From the IMG/VR virus record IMGVR_UViG_3300020112_001004, positions 1 through 64,000 of that record: 64,000 bases of DNA. One strand, written 5' to 3'. Of this stretch, positions 1,737 through 46,767 are shown piece after piece. The DNA is from a virus (taxonomy: Duplodnaviria; Caudoviricetes). Numbering within the stretch: the first letter of the stretch is position 1; every line of letters starts with the position of its first letter. Under the pieces are notes generated by a model. It ran no database searches. It was given only the letters and a program-made list of their open reading frames with translations, and was not told the DNA's origin. Both the position numbers and the translations under genes were made by a program.

Positions 1737-2171
1737 ATGGGACAGCTATATAGTTTTAAGGGATTGGTTAATATGTGGATAGATAACAATGAATTTGCAT
1801 TGTATCTTACTCCAGAGCTGGGAATGGTATTATTCGAGGAGGAATGGGATAAAGAGGGTAGGTTGGTAGACGGTAAATATCATCATGAATGTAAAATATA
1901 TGACCTGTTAACAGAGGAGCAACATTGTGAACTGTTCAACTTAGAGGATAATTTAGATAAAATTATCGAAGATAAATATATTCAATATATAAATTGTGCC
2001 ATGGATTATCTAGTACAAGAAATTAGTTATAATAAAATAGTAAAACTGGTTTCTGATTTTAAAAATCATCCAAATGGGGCTGTTTATTCTACAATAGACA
2101 AGGCAGTTAGTAGTTACATTGTCAAAAGGAAAGAAGAATATCCAGAGTTGTATTTAGAAGTAATGTTATAA
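1737..2171 (+). CDS. hypothetical protein, ELYLE-tag family (paralog of 2195 and 4988)
   Basis: LYSFKxLVNMWIDNN...YPELYLEVML shared by three paralogs. Confidence 0.8.
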   Translation: MGQLYSFKGLVNMWIDNNEFALYLTPELGMVLFEEEWDKEGRLVDGKYHHECKIYDLLTEEQHCELFNLEDNLDKIIEDKYIQYINCAMDYLVQEISYNKIVKLVSDFKNHPNGAVYSTIDKAVSSYIVKRKEEYPELYLEVML

Positions 2172-2194
2172 AATAAATTAAAAGGAGTGGCAAT

Positions 2195-2635
2195 ATGGAA
2201 CAGTTATATAGTTTTAAGGAATTGGTTAATATGTGGATAGATAACAATGAATTTGATTTGCATTATGCTCCAGAGTTGGGAATGATACTGTTCGAGCTAG
2301 AATGGGGCAAAGATGGTAGGTTGATGGACGGTAAATATTATCCAGAGTGTAAATTATCTAAGTTGTTAAAAGAGGAACAATATCGTGAAATAGGTCGCCT
2401 TGAGCATAGCCTAAATAAATTTAAATTTATCAAAGGTAAATACGTTCAATGTATAAATTGTGCCATGGATTATCTAGCACAAGAAATTAATTGGGGTAAA
2501 GTGGCAAATCTGATTTCTGATTTTAAAAACAAACCAGATACGCTTGTTCATTCTACAATAGATGGAATAGTTAGAAGTTACATTGTCAAAAGGAAAGAAG
2601 AATACCCAGAGTTGTATTTAGAAGTAATGTTATAA
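2195..2635 (+). CDS. hypothetical protein, ELYLE-tag family (tandem paralog of 1737)
   Basis: near-colinear similarity with 1737..2171; ends YPELYLEVML. Confidence 0.8.
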   Translation: MEQLYSFKELVNMWIDNNEFDLHYAPELGMILFELEWGKDGRLMDGKYYPECKLSKLLKEEQYREIGRLEHSLNKFKFIKGKYVQCINCAMDYLAQEINWGKVANLISDFKNKPDTLVHSTIDGIVRSYIVKRKEEYPELYLEVML

Positions 2636-2663
2636 AATAATTTAAAAGTAGGAGTGATGACAA

Positions 2664-3287
2664 ATGAAAAGAAATAAGATTACAAAACTAATAATGATAG
2701 CACTATTATCATTAAATCTATTCACAATTTTTACTGTTAAAAAACAAATTAATAAAAATTTGAATGAAACACAGTATAGTGAACAAGCCACTTCCAGAGA
2801 CGAAAAAGTGGAATATGATAAAGTTATCTTAGAGAGCTTGAGAAGTGTTAGTCGACTTGAAATAGGACAAATCTCTGGGCATGAAGAGGTTGAAGTTAGT
2901 AATTGCAAAAATAGTAAGTTGTTTCATAATTGCAATATTTTAGACTTTAAAGCCGTGTGCCATCTATATATTAATTTTGACAGTATTGGGGAAGATTCTA
3001 TAATAATCAAGGATAATACAGTGTTTATATTTACCAATATTAAGAAAGAAGTAGAAATTGTAGATGTAGCGAGTAAAACGAATAAAGGACTTTTAAGTTT
3101 TTACGAGAGGAAATATTCCAGTGAAGAATTTAATGATATACAGCAAAACGTAAAGGGTAAAATATTGGATAAGATTGAAGAGGGAGATTACAACGATACA
3201 ATTAAGAGAGTAGGGGAGGATAAAATAGAAAAGTTAATAAATAGGTTAACCAATGATAAATACGAAGTAAAAATAGTTGTAAGATAG
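2664..3287 (+). CDS. membrane-anchored protein, possibly DUF4230-like
   Basis: N-terminal hydrophobic helix after MKRNKI; family call from general resemblance only. Confidence 0.5.
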   Translation: MKRNKITKLIMIALLSLNLFTIFTVKKQINKNLNETQYSEQATSRDEKVEYDKVILESLRSVSRLEIGQISGHEEVEVSNCKNSKLFHNCNILDFKAVCHLYINFDSIGEDSIIIKDNTVFIFTNIKKEVEIVDVASKTNKGLLSFYERKYSSEEFNDIQQNVKGKILDKIEEGDYNDTIKRVGEDKIEKLINRLTNDKYEVKIVVR

Positions 3288-3398
3288 GTAACAAATTAGG
3301 ACAAGTTGATAATAATATAATATAGAGAGGACAACCTCTCTAGTACATACTTGCTTAATAAGTAAGTAAATAATAAATTAAAAAGGGGTTTAATAAAA

Positions 3399-4091
3399 AT
3401 GGGGAAAAAGAGAAAAAAGAAAAGGACGTATTGGTATGTAAATATAATAGATGAAAAAAATAATAATAAGCCTTATATAACCTCCAAAGGGAAGAAAGCA
3501 GGTCAGTCTATTAAATTTAATAGTTTTGAAGAGGCTAAACAGTTTATACAAAAAGGAGTGTACCCAAAAAAGAAGTATGATGAAAAAGAAAAATTATATA
3601 ATTATATATTTTTAGATGGCTCATGGTGTTGTAAATGCAATAAAATAAGTAAATCATTTGCTTCTGGATTTATCCATGTGATAAACGGAGAAGTGGTCAA
3701 GGAAAAAGTAAGTTTGGTAAATACTAAAAAACACAAGGAGACTAAACAATTTTTTGATAAAGACAAGACTGGTATTAGTGAATTATACGCTCTAAATATG
3801 GTATTAGAATATATAAAAACATTAAAGCCATCAAAATATAAAAAAGATAGTGTAGTTATAGTAACTGATAGTGTTCAATATATTTATTGTATAAATGAAT
3901 TAAAAATTAAAAAACAATATAATGAAATATCTGAAAAAATAAAAAACAATTATAAATATTTGATTGATAATGGTTATAAAATAAAATTCAGACATGCAAA
4001 AAGCCATAATGGTTGCAAATATAATGATTATATAGATGAAAAAGTTAGATTGGGTAGTAGATTGACTTTACCTTTTACTCAAGAGGATTAA
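3399..4091 (+). CDS. ribonuclease HI-like protein
   Basis: FLDGS...SELYAL...VTDS...HAKSHNGCKYNDYID acidic motifs of RNase H fold. Confidence 0.75.
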   Translation: MGKKRKKKRTYWYVNIIDEKNNNKPYITSKGKKAGQSIKFNSFEEAKQFIQKGVYPKKKYDEKEKLYNYIFLDGSWCCKCNKISKSFASGFIHVINGEVVKEKVSLVNTKKHKETKQFFDKDKTGISELYALNMVLEYIKTLKPSKYKKDSVVIVTDSVQYIYCINELKIKKQYNEISEKIKNNYKYLIDNGYKIKFRHAKSHNGCKYNDYIDEKVRLGSRLTLPFTQED

Positions 4092-4117
4092 TATTAATAA
4101 ACAAAGGGGATATAAAA

Positions 4118-4831
4118 ATGAAAAGGAACAAAATAGTAAAAATATTAATGAGCTTAGGATTAGTGTTATTCACACTATTTGGAGTATCAACTACAGCTAA
4201 AGCAGGTACTAAAAGTTATAGTTTAAATAATAATTGTATAGAGTACAATGTTGGAAATAATTTAAAAAGAACAAAAAAAGAAAAAGTAGAAAAACCTACT
4301 ATAATAATTGATTATGCCCATAGAGCAGTAAAAAACGGACAAATAGACCATGGTGCAGAGGGAGAATTAAAGGGGAGAGTGTATTATGAAGATGATATAG
4401 CAAATGATATAAGTTTTAAGGTTGGAAAGAAGCTTGAGGCAGAAGGTTTTAATGTATTATACACCAGAAATATATCTGGGTTCTGTTCTCTTAGCGATAG
4501 GAAAGAGTTCTGTAGGAATAATAAACATGATTTATATTTAAGTATTCATTTGAATAGTTGCGAGAATAATAATACAGCACATGGAACAGAGGCTTTTAGC
4601 AATGATAGAAAAGAGTTAGCTAATAAAATAGTTGATAGGCTAGTTAAAGACCATGGGTTTACCAAGAGATATGTTAACGAAGATAAATTTTACTGCAAAG
4701 ATGTAGGAGGAGATTTGCTTTTAGAGGTGTCCTATATTAACCATGAGAAGGATTTACTATATACTTTAAATAATAAAGATTCAATAGCAGAGTCAATAGC
4801 AGATGAAATTATAAAAAATTATAGGAACTAG
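4118..4831 (+). CDS. secreted N-acetylmuramoyl-L-alanine amidase (Amidase_3)
   Basis: signal peptide; IIIDYAH, E, YLSIHLNS, GTE, LLEVSY zinc-amidase motifs. Confidence 0.85.
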   Translation: MKRNKIVKILMSLGLVLFTLFGVSTTAKAGTKSYSLNNNCIEYNVGNNLKRTKKEKVEKPTIIIDYAHRAVKNGQIDHGAEGELKGRVYYEDDIANDISFKVGKKLEAEGFNVLYTRNISGFCSLSDRKEFCRNNKHDLYLSIHLNSCENNNTAHGTEAFSNDRKELANKIVDRLVKDHGFTKRYVNEDKFYCKDVGGDLLLEVSYINHEKDLLYTLNNKDSIAESIADEIIKNYRN

Positions 4832-4987
4832 AAATTACAATACTAGACGATAAGCCAGTTTGGGGGAGTCTATAAGTGTTTTGACGTTTAATTTTTAGAC
4901 TAGATTGAGAGTTGATAGATAAGCGTAAAAAGTAACAAATTAAAATGGTTTGCTAATAATATAATATAAATATTAAGGAGTGACAAT

Positions 4988-5425
4988 ATGGAACGGTTAT
5001 ATAGCCTTAAAGAATTGGTTAATATGTGGATAGATAACAATACTTTTAATCTGTGTTATACTCCAGAGTTGGGAATGATATTACTCGAATTAGAACGGGA
5101 TGAAGATGATAGGCTGATAGACGGTAAATATTATAGTGAATGTCATTTATATAAGTTGTTAAAAGAGGAACAACATGGTGAAATAGTATACCTTGAGAAT
5201 AACTTAGTTAATTTTACTGAATATAAATATGCCCAATATATAAATTGTGCTATGGATTATCTAGTACAAGAATTTAATTATAATAAAGTAGCAAAACTGA
5301 TTTCTGATTTTAAAAACAAACCAAATACGGCTGTTCACTCCACAATAGATAGGATAGTTAGTAGTTACATTATCAAAAAGAAAGAGGAATATCCAGAGCT
5401 GTATTTAGAGGTAATGTTGGAATAA
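4988..5425 (+). CDS. hypothetical protein, ELYLE-tag family (paralog of 1737/2195)
   Basis: colinear similarity; ends YPELYLEVMLE. Confidence 0.8.
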   Translation: MERLYSLKELVNMWIDNNTFNLCYTPELGMILLELERDEDDRLIDGKYYSECHLYKLLKEEQHGEIVYLENNLVNFTEYKYAQYINCAMDYLVQEFNYNKVAKLISDFKNKPNTAVHSTIDRIVSSYIIKKKEEYPELYLEVMLE

Positions 5426-5470
5426 GGTAACAAACCATACAAAAATGATAATAATATAATATAAAGCAGA

Positions 5471-5545
5471 GGAAGTCAACAAAGACTTCCAATACATAGT
5501 CTTAAGATATGTACCCACTCTTTGGAGGGGTTAATTTAAAAGGTG
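5471..5545 (+). ncRNA. motif B copy (full three-stem form) upstream of RNAP gene
   Basis: GGAAGTC/GACTTCC-AA-TACATA...TATGT-ACCCACTC/GAGGGGT-TAATTTAAAAGG. Confidence 0.8.
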
Positions 5546-5553
5546 GTATGTAG

Positions 5554-8523
5554 ATGAGTAAATTTAAGAGTTTTAATCAAAGATGTTATTTTAAGATTCC
5601 AAGTGACGTATTGGTTGAGAATGAATTAGATTTAGAATTAACAGATAAATTAATAAAAAGATATTCAATGAGAAATGCAGGAGGGAATTCACAACTATTT
5701 AGATTTATAGAAACAATTAAAAATGAAAACACCTTAAGCAAAGAAAAAAAGATAGAAAAAGCAAAAAAAGATTTGAAAGAATATATGCAAAAGGATAGAC
5801 CTAACGGGAAGAAAATAATAGAATTGAGGGAAGAAATAAATAATTTAAAATTATTAGAGGATATAATAGCAATTAAATTTAATAATAAAAAGCATTTTAA
5901 AGACATAGAAGAAAATGGAGTTGATATAACTTACAATGGGGTAAAAAGACACTATGTCAGATTGGTTGGGACTACTGGTGGGGTAAAGGCAAGTACTGTA
6001 TTATTTATTAATAGCGCAATTAGTCCGATATTAAGAGAAATAATAGAGTGTGGAGCAAGTGAAGAATTTAAGATTATACCAGCTAAATTAGAAGCTTATT
6101 ATGCACTATGTGCGTCTGGTTCTACACCATTAAGAAAAATGCCTAGAATAGCAGTAGTTAAAGATTTAGAAATCGTAATCCATGAAAATGTTGAAGTACT
6201 AAAGGGGAATGTTTGGGATGACGAAGAACAAAAACATTATTATATGAACAATAAAGAAGTTAAAGAGATATTAAAGAAATCTAATAAAAGAGAGGATTAT
6301 GGAACAGACGAAGAATACGAGCAAGTGATAGCACAACAAAAAGAGATAATATCTATGAGGCAACAAATAAAAGACTATGAAAATACTTATACAATAACTG
6401 AAGTTAAAGATTATGCATTAGAAAAGAGCCCATGTGATGGATTAGGGGTTATGACAGTAGAGTTTGCAGAGAGTCTTAAAAAAGAACTCAATATAAATTA
6501 TATACCTAGTGGGGTTAATACAAGATGTGCTTACGGTAAAGGTATGTTATTTACAATGGACTGCATAAAGTTCGTAGAAGTTTTCAATGGGGCTAGTGAA
6601 GAGAATCCTCAAGGATATAAGTTTATAGATTTTTGGGGGAACAAACAAGATATAAGAGAGATTGATGTAATAATGACTCAGAACCAAGTTAAGTTAGCTG
6701 GAGCATATAAAAATATAGAAGATTACGTAGGAAATATGAAAAAGTACGGTTGGAGTTTTTCAATAACAAAAGTTTGTCCTAAACACTTAGAAAGAACAAG
6801 AAATTTAAACTATCAATTTTTACAATCTTATGAGTTCAGTGATGAAGATATAAAAGAACTTTGCAAAGATACTGTAGAGTATTTAAGAGATGTAACAGGA
6901 GGGGACTATTATAAGTCATTGCTATTCTTAAAAGGTAACTCACCTATAGAAGAAGATGATTTTGAGAATGAACAAGCTGGTTATGTAAAGGCTTTAATGG
7001 TAGATAAAGAATTATATAACTATAATTATATAAGAAATAGTTTTATAAACTTTAGTAGAAAAAAAATAAGAGAGGCAAAAAAAGGAAATATAATTGCTAG
7101 AGGTAATTATCAAATAGTTGGAGGAGACCCATTTGCATTGCTACAGCACATTTTTAAATTAGAAGTAACAGGTATTTTAGGAAAAGAAGATTATTATAGT
7201 GCAGAATGGATGAATGAGGGAGTGGATTGCGTGTCCAGCTTTAGAGCACCTATGACAGCTCACTCTAATATAGGTAAATGGAATATAATTAAAAAAGACA
7301 AGGTAAGCGATATGGTAAAAGCTAATGTAGATGACGAATACAAAAGAGCGAGTTACTGGTTTAAATATATAAATACAGCCATTATGGTAAATATATGGAA
7401 CTGCGACCAAGAGAAAATGAACGGAATGGACTATGATTCAGACGCTGTTATGACATTTAGTAGTAGGGTTTTAGTGGATAATGTAAGACCAACCTTACCC
7501 CTAGTATGTTTACAAGATTCTACTCCTAAGGTTAGTGTGAAGGTGGCTAAAACTTTATTAGCTAAAGCAAATAAAAACGGGTTTGGAAACGCAGTTGGTA
7601 GAGTAACCAATGTAGCAACTGCAATGTACGATACAATGGCTAAATTTGAAAAAGGCACTCCAGAATATAATGAAATGCAATATAGATTAAACTCTTCACA
7701 AGCAATTCAACAGGAAGTCATTGATAGTATCAAAGGTATTAAACCAAGAAGCTTCCCTAAATTCTGGATAGACGAAGAGGCTCTAGATAATTGCTTATAC
7801 ATGACCGAAGAGGAAAAAGAATTTAATAGAAAATTAATCACAAGCAAAAAACCTTATTTCTTTAAATACAATTATCAAAGCTTAGCAACAGAGGATAACT
7901 CTAATAATGCAAAAGCAAAATGGGATTATATAATAAAAAATAGAGAGAATCCTGTGAGAGTGGCAGAAGAAGAAGGAGTAGATATCCAAGAGGTTATCCA
8001 AAGTAGTAATAATAGTAATTTAACAAGGCACCCTTCTACTATGAATAGAATATGTATGCATTTAGAAAAAGAGCTAAAAGGATTAAATAAAGCTACAAAA
8101 ACAACTAGTGAATTTGATACTAAAGTGTTTGTTACAGATAAAACAAAAAAAGATTTAGATAGTGTAATAAAAACACTAAAACAAGTAAGAGATGATTATG
8201 TTATCTTTAGTAACCAATATAGATTGATGGATAAAGAGGAAAAGCTTAATTGTAGACAAGACGTTATGGAGGGGTTTAAAACCACACTATTACAATCCTG
8301 TGGAAATGAGGAAATTATAATAAATACAGCATTTGATAAAATGGGAAATGACACTATTGTAGTATCTATATTGTTTGACTTATTTAGAGATAGGTTAATA
8401 GATAATTTATTGAAACATTATAAACACCACACAGTGATAAGACGTGCTAAAGAGGGAGAGGCTTATCAAGTTAAGTATTTGGAAACTAACTATGTAGTTG
8501 GAATCAAGGAAGTGGAACTATAA
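5554..8523 (+). CDS. YonO-like single-subunit (two-barrel) DNA-dependent RNA polymerase
   Basis: 989 aa; CDGLG, R..YGKGML, FRAP and NGMDYDSD (DxDxD Mg-binding) motifs typical of YonO/RdRP-like polymerases; SPbeta-like context. Confidence 0.85.
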   Translation: MSKFKSFNQRCYFKIPSDVLVENELDLELTDKLIKRYSMRNAGGNSQLFRFIETIKNENTLSKEKKIEKAKKDLKEYMQKDRPNGKKIIELREEINNLKLLEDIIAIKFNNKKHFKDIEENGVDITYNGVKRHYVRLVGTTGGVKASTVLFINSAISPILREIIECGASEEFKIIPAKLEAYYALCASGSTPLRKMPRIAVVKDLEIVIHENVEVLKGNVWDDEEQKHYYMNNKEVKEILKKSNKREDYGTDEEYEQVIAQQKEIISMRQQIKDYENTYTITEVKDYALEKSPCDGLGVMTVEFAESLKKELNINYIPSGVNTRCAYGKGMLFTMDCIKFVEVFNGASEENPQGYKFIDFWGNKQDIREIDVIMTQNQVKLAGAYKNIEDYVGNMKKYGWSFSITKVCPKHLERTRNLNYQFLQSYEFSDEDIKELCKDTVEYLRDVTGGDYYKSLLFLKGNSPIEEDDFENEQAGYVKALMVDKELYNYNYIRNSFINFSRKKIREAKKGNIIARGNYQIVGGDPFALLQHIFKLEVTGILGKEDYYSAEWMNEGVDCVSSFRAPMTAHSNIGKWNIIKKDKVSDMVKANVDDEYKRASYWFKYINTAIMVNIWNCDQEKMNGMDYDSDAVMTFSSRVLVDNVRPTLPLVCLQDSTPKVSVKVAKTLLAKANKNGFGNAVGRVTNVATAMYDTMAKFEKGTPEYNEMQYRLNSSQAIQQEVIDSIKGIKPRSFPKFWIDEEALDNCLYMTEEEKEFNRKLITSKKPYFFKYNYQSLATEDNSNNAKAKWDYIIKNRENPVRVAEEEGVDIQEVIQSSNNSNLTRHPSTMNRICMHLEKELKGLNKATKTTSEFDTKVFVTDKTKKDLDSVIKTLKQVRDDYVIFSNQYRLMDKEEKLNCRQDVMEGFKTTLLQSCGNEEIIINTAFDKMGNDTIVVSILFDLFRDRLIDNLLKHYKHHTVIRRAKEGEAYQVKYLETNYVVGIKEVEL

Positions 8524-8525
8524 TA

Positions 8526-8543
8526 GAGGGGCGTTGCCCCTTT
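8526..8543 (+). terminator. probable intrinsic terminator after RNAP gene
   Basis: AGGGGC-GTT-GCCCCT stem followed by short T run. Confidence 0.55.
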
Positions 8544-8599
8544 ATAAAAGGAACAAATTGGACAGGGAAGATAATAATATAATATAAATATAAAAAGGG

Positions 8600-9040
8600 G
8601 TGTGTTATATGGATATAGATTATCCAACAGATAATATAAACAACATGATAAGAGTTATAAGGGGGATGGAGTGGGCAGGTAGAGATTTAGATACTATGGT
8701 TGAATTGGGATATATTATAACGCATGGTGATTTTTCAGACGATAATTTAATAGGGAAGTCTGCGCCATTTCTTTGTTATCAATTTTGTGCCATTCCATAT
8801 AGATATATAAGTTATTCTTTGGGAGATATATTAAGTGATAAAGATAAAGATATTATACACTATTTTAGATTGGCGTTGGAATTTGTAATAAACCATATAA
8901 AAGAACTTTGGCACGATATTTTACAACAACTTAATGATGAATCTAAGATAGGTACTTGGGTGCGTAAGGAATTTATTGGGTTTATGGAAGAAAATAAAGA
9001 TAAATATCCAGAACAGTATCTTGAAATGAAGCTATTATAA
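8600..9040 (+). CDS. hypothetical protein, ELYLE-tag family (paralog of 9063)
   Basis: tandem duplicate; ends YPEQYLEMKLL. Confidence 0.8.
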   Translation: MCYMDIDYPTDNINNMIRVIRGMEWAGRDLDTMVELGYIITHGDFSDDNLIGKSAPFLCYQFCAIPYRYISYSLGDILSDKDKDIIHYFRLALEFVINHIKELWHDILQQLNDESKIGTWVRKEFIGFMEENKDKYPEQYLEMKLL

Positions 9041-9062
9041 AGGTAATGAGTTTAAAAAAGGA

Positions 9063-9503
9063 GTGTATTATATGGACATAGGTTATCCAACAGATAATAT
9101 AAACAACATGATAAGAGCTGTAAAAGGAATGACATGGGTGGGTAGGGATTTAGATGGTATGGTTGAATTAGGATATATTATATCACATGGTAATTTTTCA
9201 GAAGATAATTTAATAGGGAAGCCTACACCATATCGTCCTTCTCAATTTTGCTATGTTCCACACAGATATGCAAGATATTCTTTGGGGAAAGGGCTGAGTG
9301 ATAATAGCGAAGATATTGTGCATTATTTTAGAATGGGACTAGAATTTATAATAAATTATATAAAAGAATTTTGGTGTGAGATTTTACAAAATCTTAATAA
9401 TACATGTTATAGAGATAGTTGGATGTATAGGGAGGTTATTAGGTTTATAGTAGAAAATAGAGATAAATATCCAGAACAATATCTTGAAATAATGTTATTA
9501 TAA
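9063..9503 (+). CDS. hypothetical protein, ELYLE-tag family (paralog of 8600)
   Basis: tandem duplicate; ends YPEQYLEIMLL. Confidence 0.8.
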   Translation: MYYMDIGYPTDNINNMIRAVKGMTWVGRDLDGMVELGYIISHGNFSEDNLIGKPTPYRPSQFCYVPHRYARYSLGKGLSDNSEDIVHYFRMGLEFIINYIKEFWCEILQNLNNTCYRDSWMYREVIRFIVENRDKYPEQYLEIMLL

Positions 9504-9607
9504 AGGTAACAAATTGGACAAGGGTGATAATAATATAATATAGGGAGGACAACCTCCCTAGTACATACTAACTTAGGTTAGTGAATAATTTAAAAGGGGT
9601 TGGGTTT

Positions 9608-10084
9608 ATGTTAAAAATAAAAGCAAAAACTTTAAGAGAATTTGGAAGAATGATAGGACAAGGAAGTACAAGGGAGATATATGTTTTAGACGGAAAAACT
9701 TACAAGGTTGAGACCAAACACTACGGGGACGTTGCAGAATGTAATAAAAACGAGTGGGATATTTATAATAAAAATAAAAGAAGTAAATTTTTAAGCAAGG
9801 TCATTGACCACAATGAAGATTTTACAGTTATAGAAGTGGAAAGATTAGACTGTGAAGTAATTGACAAACATTCTTGGGGTTATGAATCATGTTTTAATGA
9901 CATACCAACTATTTTTGACTTAGTTAAAGGCAATGAAGATTTAAAAGGTAAATTACACGTTACTCCTAGAGGGTTAAAATCTTTTTGTACTAAATATGGA
10001 TTAAGTTATGAAGAGTGTGCTTGTAGTTTTCAATTTGGACTAGCTAAAGATGGCTCAATAAAATTAAGTGACTATGCTATGTAA
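9608..10084 (+). CDS. small protein-kinase-fold protein
   Basis: IGQGSTREIY Gly-loop, YKV lysine, NxxE helix C, C-terminal IKLSDYA (DFG-like); ATG at 9608 follows RBS. Confidence 0.5.
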   Translation: MLKIKAKTLREFGRMIGQGSTREIYVLDGKTYKVETKHYGDVAECNKNEWDIYNKNKRSKFLSKVIDHNEDFTVIEVERLDCEVIDKHSWGYESCFNDIPTIFDLVKGNEDLKGKLHVTPRGLKSFCTKYGLSYEECACSFQFGLAKDGSIKLSDYAM

Positions 10085-10109
10085 TAATTTAAAAACGGGG
10101 GTATGAATT

Positions 10110-10478
10110 ATGGGTATTACAAAAACTAAATTAAATAAAACTAGAAACGAAATAGAAAAAGGTGACGTTGTATATGTTGACTTAAGTAGTTTTGAAGACG
10201 GCTCGGTTCAAGGAAACGGGGTTAATAGTACTGGTAGACCTTGTGTGGTTGTGGGCAGAGGGTTTAATAGTGAACTAATAGTGTGCGCATTAACCAGTAA
10301 AAGTAAAAAAGACATGCCAACACATACAAGGGTAAAAATTAAAGGTAGAGAATCTATTGCCCTATTAGAACAACTATTTACAATAGAAAAAGAAAAGATA
10401 AACTCAAAAAGGTGGCATGTAACAAAAGAAGAAATGGACAATATTGAATCCTGTTTAAAAATAAGTTTAGGTCTTTAG
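10110..10478 (+). CDS. PemK/MazF family endoribonuclease (no adjacent antitoxin seen)
   Basis: KGDVVYVDL...GSVQG...RPCVVV...IVCALTS...PTH...SIALLEQLFTIEK; catalytic Arg and Thr positions retained. Confidence 0.85.
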   Translation: MGITKTKLNKTRNEIEKGDVVYVDLSSFEDGSVQGNGVNSTGRPCVVVGRGFNSELIVCALTSKSKKDMPTHTRVKIKGRESIALLEQLFTIEKEKINSKRWHVTKEEMDNIESCLKISLGL

Positions 10479-10489
10479 GGGGCGAATAT

Positions 10490-10813
10490 ATGAGAAGAAT
10501 TACAAGAACACAAATTTGTAAAGCTACAAAAAGATATTACGAAGAGAATATTTTAGACGAGGAAGATGGTATAACCATAAGTAGGGCAGACATAGATAGA
10601 ATGCTGGAGGATTTAGGAGAAAAATTAGAAATATTAATAAAGGTGCTTGAAGAAGAGGAAGGGGATTTGTCGCTACGAATTGGAAATTTTGTTTTAGAAA
10701 AAAAGAAGTACAAGAGTTGCAAACGAAAAAATCCAAAAAATGGGATAGTGAACGAAGTGGAAGAAAGAGATAATTTTTTAATTAAATATAAAAAGACAGC
10801 TAGTAAAAAGTAA
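10490..10813 (+). CDS. HU/IHF-like DNA-binding protein
   Basis: IGNFVL...KRKNPKNG arm motif; small basic protein (cf. SPbeta YonN). Confidence 0.65.
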   Translation: MRRITRTQICKATKRYYEENILDEEDGITISRADIDRMLEDLGEKLEILIKVLEEEEGDLSLRIGNFVLEKKKYKSCKRKNPKNGIVNEVEERDNFLIKYKKTASKK

Positions 10814-10874
10814 CAAATTGGACAAGGTTGATAATAATATAATATAAAAAATAATTTAAAGTGGGGTAGATATT

Positions 10875-11225
10875 ATGGGTAGAATAGGATTTATAAAAGA
10901 AAACAAAGAGGAAAAAGTAAAAATAGATACATTAAAAAGAAAAAGAATCGGGTTTATAGACGACGAAATTAATGAGTTAGAACCTCATAGAAAAATTGGG
11001 ATAGGTTTCGTGAAGGAGAAAGAAAAAGAAGTTGTTACAAAAACAATAATAGAAGATATAAGGGAATATGATAAAGCGGTGGATAAATACTTAGAAAAAA
11101 ATAAAAAAAGATTAGAGCAATTAGAAAAACTTGCCAGAATAAAAAATGAAAGGATTACTATAATAGAAAAGGTTCAAGTACCGGTTAAAAAAGACGATAA
11201 GAAAATAATAATAGCTACTAAATAA
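10875..11225 (+). CDS. hypothetical protein with three IGF motifs
   Basis: RIGFI, RIGFI, IGIGFV; N-terminus resembles 46075 ORF (MGKIGFI). Confidence 0.7.
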   Translation: MGRIGFIKENKEEKVKIDTLKRKRIGFIDDEINELEPHRKIGIGFVKEKEKEVVTKTIIEDIREYDKAVDKYLEKNKKRLEQLEKLARIKNERITIIEKVQVPVKKDDKKIIIATK

Positions 11226-11228
11226 CTT

Positions 11229-11252
11229 AGGAGGGGTTGCCCTCCTTTTTTT
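11229..11252 (+). terminator. intrinsic terminator
   Basis: AGGAGGG-GTTG-CCCTCCT followed by long T run. Confidence 0.8.
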
Positions 11253-11319
11253 ATTTTAAAAGGTAACAAATTAAAAATAGTAGATAATAATATAATATAA
11301 AAAGAAAAGGGGTGGGAAT

Positions 11320-11841
11320 GTGATTAATAGAGAAGAGTTAAAAAACAAGTTTATTGAAAAGGTTATTTTATACAAAGGGAGTGAATTTAGAAACGCAGGT
11401 GCGGTTGGATTTTTAAAAAGGGAACCACTGTTAATAGGAGAGTTTAAAGTAAAAACAATATATGACGCATTAGAAAATAACAGGATTGTTGGGATAGCCG
11501 ACCTACTGACCGAAGAACAAATTAAAAATTACAATAAAGATTTTACACTTAGAGAAATTATTGTTGATAAAAAAAAGGTTAGAATATGTAATTTAAATAA
11601 TTACAGAGACGTTGTTGAAGGTGGGGTGAAAGCATGTATACCCTTAATATATAAAAACTATAAACAATATGGAGAGCCGTTTATGGAACGTTTTAAAAAT
11701 TACGAAGCTATGACAAGAAGTATAACGTTCGGGAACCGTTTGAACGACCGTAAATTAAGTATAATAATGAGCATATACACCGATTATATAGTAGAAAACA
11801 AAGACAAATTTCCAGAATTATATCTAGACATAATACTATAG
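11320..11841 (+). CDS. hypothetical protein, ELYLE-tag family
   Basis: ends KDKFPELYLDIIL; own motif-A repeat. Confidence 0.75.
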   Translation: MINREELKNKFIEKVILYKGSEFRNAGAVGFLKREPLLIGEFKVKTIYDALENNRIVGIADLLTEEQIKNYNKDFTLREIIVDKKKVRICNLNNYRDVVEGGVKACIPLIYKNYKQYGEPFMERFKNYEAMTRSITFGNRLNDRKLSIIMSIYTDYIVENKDKFPELYLDIIL

Positions 11842-11975
11842 GATTAAAAATTTTAAAATAGCAATAATTCGCCTCACGTTTTAAAATATGTGAGGTGAAT
11901 TAATTGGTAACAAATTGAAAACAGTAGATAATAATATAATATAACAAAATAATAATTTAAAAAGGAGACGATAAC

Positions 11976-12326
11976 ATGATAAACCAATCTTTATTAACAA
12001 AAGGTTCTGTAATATTTGCAGATTTAGGAGAAATAACAGGAGAGAACCATCTACAAAAAGGGAAAAGACCTTGTATAGTAGTAACAAACATAAAAGGAAG
12101 TAATAAATTAACAGTGATACCAGTAACATCACAAATTAAGAGAACTCAATATTTTAACCACGTGATTATAGAACAAGGAGAGGGAGGGTTAAATAAAGAA
12201 TCTATGGCTTTACTAGAAGATATTACTACAATAGCCAATAATCAAATAATTAACTCAATAGGTATGATTTCAGAAAAAACTGTCAATAATATAAATGTTG
12301 CATTAAGACAGTTGATAGCTGTATAA
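11976..12326 (+). CDS. PemK/MazF family endoribonuclease (second copy, no adjacent antitoxin seen)
   Basis: KGSVIFADLG...QKGKRPCIVV...VIPVTS...HVII...GLNKESMALLEDITTI, closely following the EndoA/MazF pattern. Confidence 0.88.
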   Translation: MINQSLLTKGSVIFADLGEITGENHLQKGKRPCIVVTNIKGSNKLTVIPVTSQIKRTQYFNHVIIEQGEGGLNKESMALLEDITTIANNQIINSIGMISEKTVNNINVALRQLIAV

Positions 12327-12350: not shown

Positions 12351-13628
12351 ATGAAAAGTTTAAAAGAATTAATGATACGACTTGAGGAGTATTTGTCAAA
12401 GCATGGGAAAGAAATAGAAGTGTCCAAAGCGATTAAAGAAGAATTCTTAGAAAAAGGATTGAGTCTAAGAACCACTAACTTATTAATAAACGGCATGGAA
12501 CTATCGGAATTGACAAAAGTTGAGCTTATAGCTATATCAAAAGCTCTACATAATTTAGGGATTGTAATATTTAATCCTAAAACATATTTTACGGAAAGTG
12601 AATTAAACGGATATAAAGAGTATAAACATAAACAAGAGGAGATAGAGGATATAATAGCCTTTGAGAACTGTATTAGTAATAAATTCGGTTCTGAATATAC
12701 AACTTGTTATGTTGATATTAATTTTATATATTGGTTAGTTAAAAATAGGATGATAGCGTATGATTTTGAAACTCAAAGGAATGCCAGATTAAAAAAACTA
12801 GGTGGGGGATATATTAGGAAGATTAATGTCAACAATAAAAGTGTCGAAGAAATTAAAAATTTATATCTTAATGGCAAAGCTTTTATAACCACTCTAACTT
12901 TAAATTTAGTAGGAGAAGGCGACATAAGATATGACGCAGATTCTAATTCTCTATTGATAGACACTAGAGAGGTTATATTAACTTGCATAGACGGGTGGCA
13001 CAGGATAAGTGGTATAGTTAAGGCTGTAGAGGAGGCTAAGCTAAATAATAAAACTTTAGAAGGTTATGTTAACATAAACATTGAAACATATACTGTTGAC
13101 GAAGCTAGGAATTTTATATTTGTTAATGAAAAGAAAAATGCAATAGATAAGAATTTCACCAAAACTTTATCTAATGATGAATATAATATATACGCTAAAG
13201 AAATAAATTTTTATGGAGATAAAAATTCCAATCCTCTTCATGGAGAGATAGCTATGGATTATAGTGAGCACAAGATACAAAAAACTAAAACAATCCAATA
13301 TATAATAGCAGAGGCTCTTAGAATTGCTAAGTACGAGGCTAGTGTTCTAAAAAGAAAAAAAGAAATCTGTGGGTTGATTGATAGAATTAATTATATAGTT
13401 GAATCTATAAAAGAAGAGACCGAATGTTTTAATGAGAGTGTTTTTAATTCAATGTATGTCTACGGTCTTTATATTCTGGTGAGCACTGAGAATGACTTTG
13501 AAACGCTTGAAAAAGACATAAGATTGATAATTAATAGCGAGGAGAAATTAAAAGCCTTGAAAACAGATTCAAAGGACTGTAGCATGGCTAAAATCAACAA
13601 GTTCTGGAGGGAAGTAAAATGTTTATAG
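12351..13628 (+). CDS. DGQHR/DndB-like (ParB/Srx fold) protein, SPbeta YopQ-like
   Basis: TQR...CIDGWHR...F...E signature; position upstream of recombinase-like gene. Confidence 0.7.
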   Translation: MKSLKELMIRLEEYLSKHGKEIEVSKAIKEEFLEKGLSLRTTNLLINGMELSELTKVELIAISKALHNLGIVIFNPKTYFTESELNGYKEYKHKQEEIEDIIAFENCISNKFGSEYTTCYVDINFIYWLVKNRMIAYDFETQRNARLKKLGGGYIRKINVNNKSVEEIKNLYLNGKAFITTLTLNLVGEGDIRYDADSNSLLIDTREVILTCIDGWHRISGIVKAVEEAKLNNKTLEGYVNINIETYTVDEARNFIFVNEKKNAIDKNFTKTLSNDEYNIYAKEINFYGDKNSNPLHGEIAMDYSEHKIQKTKTIQYIIAEALRIAKYEASVLKRKKEICGLIDRINYIVESIKEETECFNESVFNSMYVYGLYILVSTENDFETLEKDIRLIINSEEKLKALKTDSKDCSMAKINKFWREVKCL

Positions 13629-14548
13629 GATTAAAGAAAGAAAAAACAAGAAACAAGTTTCTAGAAAACAAACTGATATTTTTAAATGACGCAAAATATA
13701 GTGACCAGACCTGCGAGAACTATTATAGAATGTTTAAAAACTATTGTAACCAGTTGGAGGTTATATACGATAAAGATTTAATGTTTTTTAACCAAGACGA
13801 GATAGAGAACATATTAGACTTCGTCTCTACTTCTAGTAGCAAGACCAAAGAGAATTTAGCTAGTTTAATTAGAACATATTTAACTTATTGGAATAATAGA
13901 GAGGCAACTAAAACAAATATAAACTTTATAGACCTTATACCTAGAAGTAATATAGAAGTTATAAATAAACAAAGATTAAAAAATAAATATATTGGTTGGG
14001 ATAGGCTAAGAGATATTATAAAAGAAGCAAAAACAAAAATAGATATAAACCCTTTAGAAGAGTTGTGTGTGGTTTTGGGGAGATATGGATTAACCACCGA
14101 CGATATTCTAGAATTAAAGACATATAATATAGTAGATAATTTTTTAGTTATAAATGATAGGAAGTTTGATATTTCTTGTGATATTAAATTAATAGAGGAT
14201 TGTATTAATATGAAAGAGATTCTTTACAGGGGTGAACCAACCCTTTTAGAAAACGACGAAAAAATATTAAAACATATAATAGGAAGAGAAAATAACTATA
14301 GAGTTGTGAGAAGATATATTTATAAAATAATGAATGCAACTAATAATGATATAACCCTAAAAGATTTAAATAAGAGTGCTGTTTTTGACGAGATATTTAA
14401 TATATATAAAAGGAAAGGATTTTTAAAAACTGTAGATTTTAAAATAGCTTTAAAGAAAATAATGGGAAGAAAAGGGGAGTCATCTTATAGTTTATATAAG
14501 GGGGAGTTCTTGGTTTTATTCCCTAGTTTTAAAACTAAAATAACTTAA
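13619..14548 (+). CDS. tyrosine-recombinase-fold protein, probably catalytically dead (SPbeta YopR/MrpR-like repressor)
   Basis: integrase SAM-like N-terminus (T..NY..., KDL..FN..EI); YGLTTDDILELK lacks the catalytic Arg of the GxR motif; no HxxR. Confidence 0.6.
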   Translation: MFIGLKKEKTRNKFLENKLIFLNDAKYSDQTCENYYRMFKNYCNQLEVIYDKDLMFFNQDEIENILDFVSTSSSKTKENLASLIRTYLTYWNNREATKTNINFIDLIPRSNIEVINKQRLKNKYIGWDRLRDIIKEAKTKIDINPLEELCVVLGRYGLTTDDILELKTYNIVDNFLVINDRKFDISCDIKLIEDCINMKEILYRGEPTLLENDEKILKHIIGRENNYRVVRRYIYKIMNATNNDITLKDLNKSAVFDEIFNIYKRKGFLKTVDFKIALKKIMGRKGESSYSLYKGEFLVLFPSFKTKIT

Positions 14549-14781
14549 AAAATCAACGTAATTTCGTTAAATATTAAGCACCGTTTAAAAAGAATAACGA
14601 GTGGTAATATGAGATATATAACAATAAAAAATAAACAAAAAAACATTAAAAAATAGAGGTGGTTAGAAAAATGGGATTTAAGTATGGTGATTTAGAAATA
14701 ATAACACCAGAGGACAGATACACTCAAGAGGAGTGTACTGTTTTTTGTTTGAAAGAAAATAATTTAAAAGGGGAATGTGTT

Positions 14782-46012: not shown

Positions 46013-46074
46013 AAAAGTAACAAATGGTATAATATTAATAATAATATAATATAAGTAAAATGGGGGTAGATAAT

Positions 46075-46767
46075 ATGGGTAAAATAGGATTTATAAGAGA
46101 AGAAGAAAACAAGAATAATGACAAGTCTAAGAAAGACGGATTAAGACTAAAGAAATTAGAAGTTGAATTTATTGGAAGAGAGAAAGAAATTGCACCAAAA
46201 AATATAGAGATATTAGAAGAAGAGATAAATAACGCAGAAGTGAAAAAGCCTAAGAAGAAGAATAGAATTAATAGGAAAATAGTGAGTGTCTTAGTGGAAA
46301 ACGGGATAGAGGAAAAGTATGCAAAAGAGATATCAAGGAGTAAAGAAGAAAGTGACAGGTTCTTAAAACTAATAGAGAACAAAAAGGAAAATGAGCTGGA
46401 AAACGGTTCAAAAATAATTAAAAGCAAATTCACAACAAGAGAAGAAGAGGAGGATAGGTTGTTCTTTTTGGACAATAGGATGGACAGGCTTAACTCAAAA
46501 TTATTTGATACAATAGGTAGATTAGAACAACCAGTAACCAATGAAATTTTAATAGACAATATTTTAAACAATAAGCCAATAATTGTTGATAAAGTTTTTG
46601 AAAAAGAAATGAAAAAGGTAAAATCAATGTTACATGAGTATAAAGAAATAGTCCAAGAGGTTATAGACATTCAAAATAAAATAGATAAAAATAAACGTTT
46701 GATAAATGTTGACGAACAAAAAAATTTATTAAAGATGTACGAGTTAGCTGTTAAAAAGTTTGAGTAA
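46075..46767 (+). CDS. hypothetical coiled-coil protein with N-terminal KIGFI
   Basis: same upstream/RBS and N-terminus as 10875 ORF. Confidence 0.7.
   Translation: MGKIGFIREEENKNNDKSKKDGLRLKKLEVEFIGREKEIAPKNIEILEEEINNAEVKKPKKKNRINRKIVSVLVENGIEEKYAKEISRSKEESDRFLKLIENKKENELENGSKIIKSKFTTREEEEDRLFFLDNRMDRLNSKLFDTIGRLEQPVTNEILIDNILNNKPIIVDKVFEKEMKKVKSMLHEYKEIVQEVIDIQNKIDKNKRLINVDEQKNLLKMYELAVKKFE

Follow-up and report, generated by a model that had tools for sequence, protein, structure and literature searches.

In this work, we analyzed the first 64 kb (hereafter, the window) of IMGVR_UViG_3300020112_001004, a linear IMG/VR virus contig of 112,402 bp with ~30% G+C, and found that it carries two divergent genes for PemK/MazF endoribonucleases, namely, MazF-1 (10110-10478; 122 amino acids, aa) and MazF-2 (11976-12326; 116 aa). 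Both genes and the features of their operons described below are located on the plus strand. Across the contig, the hexamer UACAUA is nearly purged from the sense strand of genes and is retained between genes, mostly right after GC-rich hairpins. The hexamer that organizes the transcripts of this phage in this way is exactly the site of Bacillota chromosomal MazF, since the enzymes of Bacillus subtilis, Listeria, and Staphylococcus aureus have the strict six-base site U^ACAUA in common (bioRxiv 10.64898/2026.08.06.743204). With a confidence slightly short of even, we propose that MazF activity encoded by the phage itself serves programmed processing, host shut-off, and switch control. The source is a large clostridial phage related to SPbeta of Bacillus, and the plus strand carries nearly all genes up to 57 kb. 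The contig is estimated to be 76% complete, and the missing 24% limits all genome-wide negative results given below.

UACAUA in Coding and Intergenic Regions

On the sense strand of the called genes (101.9 kb), TACATA was observed only twice, compared with 35.4 ± 5.1 copies expected from synonymous-codon shuffling (z = −6.6; the minimum among 300 shuffles was 21), and ranked by z-score it is the most depleted of the 4096 hexamers. Its reverse complement is not depleted in genes (68 vs. 61), unlike the words avoided at the DNA level that are described below, which indicates that the selection against UACAUA acts on RNA. TACATT (29 copies) and TACATG (16 copies) are still common in genes; therefore, the depletion signal is that of the six-mer. 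One of the two nominally genic sites (46786) in fact precedes the true start codon and is part of an intergenic hairpin element. The sole genuine in-gene sense UACAUA of the contig is at 12547-12552, within the yopQ-like gene of the operon that starts with MazF-2, and this operon represents 2.5% of the coding sequence. Under a maximal-order Markov expectation, UACAUA is not among the most depleted words. This is probably explained by the depletion of UACAUA sub-words themselves in genes, and the synonymous-codon shuffle is the appropriate null model.

Other words also show skewed counts in the genes. AACATA, ACATAA, ACATAG, ACATAT, and TTACAT are ~2.5-fold depleted on the sense strand, which suggests weaker selection against near-cognate sites. 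GATC is wholly absent, with every GATC-containing hexamer at 0 vs. 14-31 expected, and CAATTG (2 vs. 33), GGATAC/GTATCC (0), and TCCTGA/TCAGGA (0) are strongly depleted as well. The depletion of GATC, CAATTG, and the like has the appearance of restriction-site avoidance at the DNA level.

Between genes, 34 sense copies of UACAUA are present in ~10 kb, vs. ~7.5 predicted from base composition. A GC-rich hairpin is located 0-3 nucleotides (nt) before the hexamer in 32 of these 34 copies, with a stem sequence that differs from site to site and a mean minimum free energy (MFE) of −9.9 kcal/mol, compared with −3.2 kcal/mol in control windows. Five of the hairpin-UACAUA elements are positioned ~22 nt downstream of a promoter-like repeat, and several elements are found at gene ends. 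The leader of the MazF-1 operon provides an example (9543-9582): an 8-bp GC hairpin (MFE −13.6 kcal/mol) is followed after 1 nt by UACAUA (9562-9567) and then by a second small hairpin. Many of the elements (25498, 27601, 38506, 41466, 43894, and 46786) continue with UUUAAUAUGUACC(C/U)ACUCUUAGAGGGGUUAAUU. In these, base pairing of UACAUA with a UAUGUA further downstream is possible, and the ribosome-binding site is adjoined by a conserved stretch rich in C, such that this pairing element could act as a cleavage-dependent translational switch.

In the fragments of SPbeta and phi3T that were compared, UACAUA is enriched (28 vs. 13.6 and 10 vs. 5.9, respectively), whereas it is purged here; therefore, the purge is specific to this type of phage. 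Such a pattern might also arise independently of MazF, for example if the element were a termination or pause signal of a YonO-type polymerase or the site of another RNase, in which case the two MazF proteins would be generic host-shut-off RNases of a different specificity. Phages are known to avoid polymerase signals in a strand-specific manner, as exemplified by the class II terminators of T7, and the phage studied here does encode a YonO-like polymerase and has several elements at gene ends. However, this scenario would leave the identity of the hexamer to a published MazF site and the presence of two MazF genes in one genome as coincidences, and a position ~22 nt past a promoter-like repeat is a poor place for a terminator. 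We consider it distinctly unlikely.

Family, Fold, and Selection of the Two MazF Proteins

Both proteins match Pfam PF02452 (PemK_toxin) from end to end (MazF-1: E = 2.8e-16, 60.1 bits, profile positions 1-109; MazF-2: E = 1e-16, 61.5 bits, profile positions 2-108; cut-off 23.1 bits) as well as PHROG 1936 (MazF-like growth inhibitor), and they are the only PemK matches in the contig. With 30% identity to each other, they agree with the initial annotation of this region, which had described two divergent PemK/MazF genes at 10110-12326. The best solved relatives of both are EndoA/YdcE of B. subtilis and MazF of S. aureus. A subfamily profile built from the 68 nearest homologues likewise matched S. 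aureus MazF and B. subtilis EndoA at ~1e-42, compared with 1e-25 for Mycobacterium tuberculosis MazF9 and 1e-14 for Escherichia coli MazF. The AlphaFold models (predicted local distance difference test score 94.4 for MazF-2 and 80.1 for MazF-1) both have the MazF beta-barrel and C-terminal helix, and that of MazF-1 has one more helix at the N-terminus. The top Foldseek matches were 4mdx, 7bxy, 1ne8, and 4mzp (probability 1.00), with template modelling (TM) scores of 0.82-0.85 for MazF-2 and 0.67-0.75 for MazF-1, and the best of these were RNA-bound B. subtilis MazF and S. aureus MazF.

The Bacillota chromosomal MazF/EndoA (NdoA) enzymes thus share with the phage proteins the Pfam family, the fold, and the equivalents of Arg25/Pro26 and Thr48, residues for which catalytic roles have been described (PMC7354611). 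Unlike these enzymes, the phage proteins are encoded in early operons, without a mazE partner and in two divergent copies. As the initial annotation had noted for the RP and T(S) positions, Arg-Pro and Thr-Ser are kept in both proteins and their orthologues when aligned with B. subtilis MazF. In a 69-sequence alignment of the subfamily, the Arg, Pro, and Thr are present in 66, 68, and 59 sequences, respectively, and the conserved His and Ser positions are also kept in the phage proteins. Compared with near-identical metagenomic copies, the ratios of nonsynonymous to synonymous polymorphism (pN/pS) of the two genes are 0.16 and 0.21. These patterns indicate that both genes are functional and under selection rather than relics, and both proteins are probably active endoribonucleases.

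The MazF-2 Operon and Its Conservation

MazF-2 is the first gene of a repressor operon. A promoter-like repeat was read in the sequence upstream of it (11907-11943), and 24 nt downstream follows a YopQ/SroE-like gene (12351-13628; 425 aa; tblastn to SPbeta yopQ, E = 3e-15; PHROG 5732, E = 2.8e-36), which overlaps by 10 nt with a gene for a YopR/SroF (MrpR)-like repressor (13619-14548; 309 aa; Pfam PF22822 MrpR_N_CB, E = 4.6e-10; PHROG 5830). The unit is closed by an intrinsic-terminator-like hairpin with a T run (14719-14747), which is nominally inside an open reading frame (ORF) whose PHROG dUTPase match starts only at residue 60. The initial annotation had assigned MazF-2 its own promoter-like repeat and a place at the head of a yopQ/yopR-like operon, and both are correct. 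The repeat is not peculiar to MazF-2, because the MazF-1 operon also has one (9506), among 34 in the contig.

The lysis-lysogeny circuit that links SPbeta/phi3T to MazF, to which the initial annotation had not related this position, is the most informative context for it. In these phages, the yopM-R (sroA-F) operon is located downstream of aimR-aimP(-aimX). Host MazF is central to the decision of phi3T, in which AimX and YosL inactivate MazF through a MazE-like helix, whereas phi3T_93 binds MazE and thereby frees MazF, such that lysogeny is favoured (PMC10769878; bioRxiv 10.1101/2023.04.27.537455). The operon proteins work through MazE, and the sro operon is spared by MazF (PMC10769878; bioRxiv 10.1101/2025.11.27.690993; bioRxiv 10.64898/2026.08.06.743204). 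The contig shares with SPbeta and phi3T the direct succession of a YopQ/SroE homologue and a YopR/SroF homologue, as well as a MazF-related function at the head of the operon. However, whereas the Bacillus phages rely on small binders of host MazE together with MazE-like antitoxins (AimX and YosL), the operon found here encodes MazF itself. Unlike the SPbeta-type operon, it begins with MazF-2, and SroA/SroB and an integrase-like YopP/SroD gene were not found upstream. Homologues of AimR/AimP were not evident beside the operon, although no dedicated search for them was made.

In an exhaustive HMMER search, a single cluster (P0003) exceeded 45% identity to MazF-2, and this orthologue is 49% identical. 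On its 4.4-kb contig (L007), a YopP-like integrase gene is followed, after 418 bp in which no credible ORF is present, by MazF, a YopQ-like gene (51% identical), and an MrpR-like gene. MazF has thus stayed immediately ahead of the two repressor-type genes despite considerable sequence divergence. Among its 3.9 kb of genes, this contig, which is too short for statistics, has a single sense UACAUA, located within the MazF orthologue (L007 1905). The protein homologue search recovered only near-identical copies. Locus searches of viral, genome, and metagenome contigs with single proteins or with YopQ or MazF-2 alignments found nothing close except for one 170-kb phage, in which the YopQ-like gene is 26% identical and a PemK gene is absent.

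Neighbouring Genes and the Search for an Antitoxin

The promoter-like repeat is 34 nt long (GTAACAAATT-N10-GATAATAATATAAT) and occurs in 34 copies on the transcribed strand of both early arms of the contig, including copies at 26, 1148, 9506, 11907, and 54848 in the window and at 99188-111280 (minus strand) in the contig. The uniformity of these copies indicates a single class of putative early promoters. Copies at 9506, 10810, 11263, and 11907 split the MazF region into units. The first of these (9506-9542; GTAACAAATT-N10-GATAATAATATAATATA) precedes the MazF-1 operon, which starts with a 167-aa small kinase-like protein (9581-10084; PHROG 4301) with a likely start at residue 10 (nt 9608). Structure search placed the predicted fold of this protein near protein kinases and aminoglycoside phosphotransferases (TM 0.59-0.69), with Phage_T7_kinase as its closest named feature cluster. 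The last gene of the operon encodes a 107-aa HU/IHF-like DNA-binding protein (10490-10813; pN/pS 0.05), with TM scores of 0.65-0.72 to IHF/HU models. The trio of the 167-aa protein, MazF-1, and the 107-aa protein is kept in two metagenomic relatives (L005 and L006).

The MazF-1 and MazF-2 units are separated by genes for a 116-aa protein and a 173-aa tag protein. The latter (11320-11841) is the upstream neighbour of MazF-2, has its own promoter-like repeat at 11263, and ends in the C-terminal motif [YF]P[ED]xYL[ED]xxL, in this case FPELYLDIIL. It belongs to a family of at least 19 paralogues (~126-173 aa), with six genes at 1737-11841 in the window and 13 at 104457-111252 in the contig (L022), many of which are preceded by their own promoter-like repeat. 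Their bodies are very divergent, and the extreme C-terminus is near-invariant ([YF][IV]I.NK[DE]E[FY]P[ED].YL[ED][LM]ML). Because the end of this tag (YLE[LM]ML) resembles the GYMEM helix of MazE/AimX/YosL, the tag proteins were considered as YosL-like antitoxins; this was rejected, as at least 19 paralogues are too many for a dedicated antitoxin. A relationship of the family to YosL was rejected as well (hhalign against SPbeta YosL, probability 0.1%). Modelling of a complex between a pair of MazF-2 chains and the 173-aa tag protein gave no answer (score 0.00, without controls) and is neutral as to binding.

No match to MazE/AbrB (PF04014), RHH_1 (PF01402), or RHH_3 (PF12651) at E ≤ 1 was found in the 112-kb contig. 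The 135 bp that precede MazF-2 contain no small ORF, and tblastn of the contig found no homologue of YosL or AimX (best E = 1.2, noise). A type III RNA antitoxin was rejected for want of tandem repeats near either MazF gene. In place of the adjacent antitoxin gene of a type II MazEF module, the neighbours are kinase-like, HU-like, and tag proteins. For the two upstream neighbours, structure search, the tag sequence, and domain searches support the view of the initial annotation that they are a kinase-like ORF and a protein with an ELYLE-type tag rather than MazE or a ribbon-helix-helix protein. Its description of the genes as antitoxin-less also holds for every canonical family and the immediate neighbours tested, as judged from the contig sequence.

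These genes may nevertheless be ordinary toxin modules that serve in prophage stabilization, superinfection exclusion, or abortive infection. In that case, the inhibitor would be either non-canonical, such as an RNA or one of the neighbouring proteins (kinase-like, HU-like, or tag), or encoded within the unrecovered 24% of the genome. The incompleteness of the contig and the tight gene spacing at MazF-1, which is like that of a toxin-antitoxin operon, would fit this explanation, as would the wide distribution of phage MazF-like genes that likewise have no annotated antitoxin. Among the latter, PHROG 1936 genes of Lactobacillus Herelleviridae, Thomasclavelia phage TR-TP1, and Lachnospiraceae phages are also solitary and are 31-42% identical to those described here. 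In the examined phages, however, these genes have unrelated neighbours, and none is placed before sroE/sroF. We also rejected the idea that phage MazF genes share a conserved upstream partner, because the genes preceding MazF in Lactobacillus phage 3-521 and Clostridium phage NatCom_42228 are related neither to one another nor to those found here. Together with the lack of canonical antitoxin domains and tandem RNA repeats, this argues against ordinary modules, which would also leave the UACAUA architecture and the conserved sroE/sroF link unexplained. We regard this explanation as quite unlikely.

The contig has further features outside these operons. The YonO-like single-subunit RNA polymerase (5554-8523 in the window; 989 aa) has relatives in Clostridium phage c-st and in Enterocloster and Thomasclavelia phages, and its match in Enterocloster phage PMBT24 carries the annotation "RNA-dependent RNA polymerase." In the close relative L005 (86-4072), the polymerase region is called as two genes of 629 and 357 aa with a NUMOD4 homing-endonuclease gene in between. 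Two other proteins of the window (10875-11225 and 46060-46767) both start with the motif MG(R/K)IGFI(K/R)E, which is repeated within the first.

Proposed Source of the MazF Activity

The main alternative to a phage-encoded activity is that chromosomal MazF of the host cuts UACAUA and that the phage proteins are modulators, acting as a sponge for host MazE like SroA/SroB of phi3T, forming mixed dimers with host MazF, or cutting another sequence. We consider this unlikely, although in its favour MazF-2 occupies the position that the MazE-binding proteins have in the phi3T operon. Several observations that fit it weigh at the same time against our proposal. Host MazF alone could explain the UACAUA purge; the 170-kb relative without PemK shows a mild depletion of UACAUA (33 vs. 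52, z = −3.3), whereas no depletion is seen in Thomasclavelia phage TR-TP1 (12 vs. 15.9), a phage with a MazF-like gene. The phage proteins are ~30% identical to B. subtilis MazF, in a range where MazF specificity often differs. They also deviate from the canonical enzyme in the beta1-beta2 loop, a contact region for both RNA and antitoxin. The Glu of this loop (Glu20 in UAC-type MazFs and Glu24 in E. coli MazF), described as essential in MazF-Da and E. coli MazF (PMC8634880), is replaced by Leu in MazF-2, by Val in the MazF-2 orthologue, and, if the longer loop of MazF-1 is aligned in the most likely way, by Val in that protein. In the model of MazF-1, the beta1-beta2 loop is long and of low confidence (residues 29-40). 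Two more points count against our proposal: only two independent examples of the MazF-sroE-sroF arrangement were recovered, and temperate growth is not established because no integrase or tyrosine-recombinase domain was found in the 112-kb contig. On the other side, purifying selection has preserved the catalytic Arg and Thr in the two genes as well as in their orthologues, which would be needless for a pure decoy.

The loop substitution also raises the question of whether one or both proteins are catalytically dead and use the MazF fold in a binding role only, and two other nearly invariant residues are changed in MazF-1, a Pro to Ala and a Gly to a different residue. However, the column of the loop Glu is mostly hydrophobic in the 69-member subfamily (20 Val, 20 Glu, 16 Ile, and 7 Leu). 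Because most of the nearest homologues share this property, the loss of the Glu is a subfamily trait rather than decay. With Arg-Pro, Thr-Ser, His, and Ser all kept, we judge dead enzymes to be very improbable.

On the basis of these comparisons, the phage MazF proteins are inferred to cut UACAUA. MazF is the most economical explanation of the transcript architecture, given that the hexamer is exactly the MazF site, that two MazF genes close to UACAUA-type enzymes are present, and that the link of MazF-2 to sroE/sroF is conserved. The phage genes are the likely source of the activity. The initial annotation had suggested processing or host-shut-off nucleases for the hairpin-UACAUA element (its "motif B"). 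This suggestion gains strong circumstantial support from the placement of UACAUA after GC hairpins, the purge from genes, and the closeness of the subfamily to UACAUA-type enzymes, with the absence of the loop Glu from both proteins on the opposite side. Its further suggestions, a heterodimer with altered specificity or dominant-negative mimics that bind host MazE or MazF, may be rivals to this explanation. A partial analogy is RegB of T4, an early, sequence-specific phage RNase whose fold is toxin-like and whose targets are defined sites in early phage transcripts. The likeness is one of analogy only, since RegB belongs to another family, has the site GGAG, and has no link to a repressor operon. 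In the literature, we found no published description of a phage-encoded MazF used for processing of the phage's own transcripts or for a switch.

Under our proposal, the phage would encode for itself the UACAUA-specific activity that SPbeta and phi3T borrow from their Bacillus hosts. Both MazFs would be made from general early promoters and without a dedicated type II antitoxin, which might not be needed because the phage's own messages lack the target. Removal of UACAUA from all coding sequences but one would make these messages immune, and its retention only between genes and in 5′ leaders, right after protective hairpins, would let MazF trim polycistronic transcripts at harmless points while it cuts the mRNAs of the host or of competitors. 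MazF-1, made together with the kinase-like and HU-like proteins, may be the copy for early take-over and processing. MazF-2, co-transcribed with the SroE/SroF-type repressors, may couple MazF activity to the lysis-lysogeny circuit, and the in-gene site, located in the sroE-like gene of the MazF-2 operon, could serve for a feedback cut.

Implications for SPbeta-Like Phages

MazF is usually regarded as a host toxin or defence, and recent work on SPbeta/phi3T has revealed sensing and manipulation of this host enzyme by phages. A phage-encoded MazF as proposed here would differ in three respects: its placement in a repressor operon, the lack of an antitoxin, and the immunity of the phage's own messages through site deletion with insulated intergenic sites kept. 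It is conceivable, though on the unlikely side, that a clostridial SPbeta-like lineage took in the MazF arm of the circuit and rebuilt its transcriptome around UACAUA, with immune coding regions, ~34 hairpin-insulated processing sites, and the in-gene site as a switch point, such that immunity would come from the phage rather than from a protein partner. If true, our proposal would represent a new use of a toxin, in which immunity is written into the substrate rather than given by an antitoxin. It would also offer a testable model of how MazF activity leads to a lysis-lysogeny or host-shut-off outcome, as well as natural and orthogonal six-base-specific RNases with matching processing sites.

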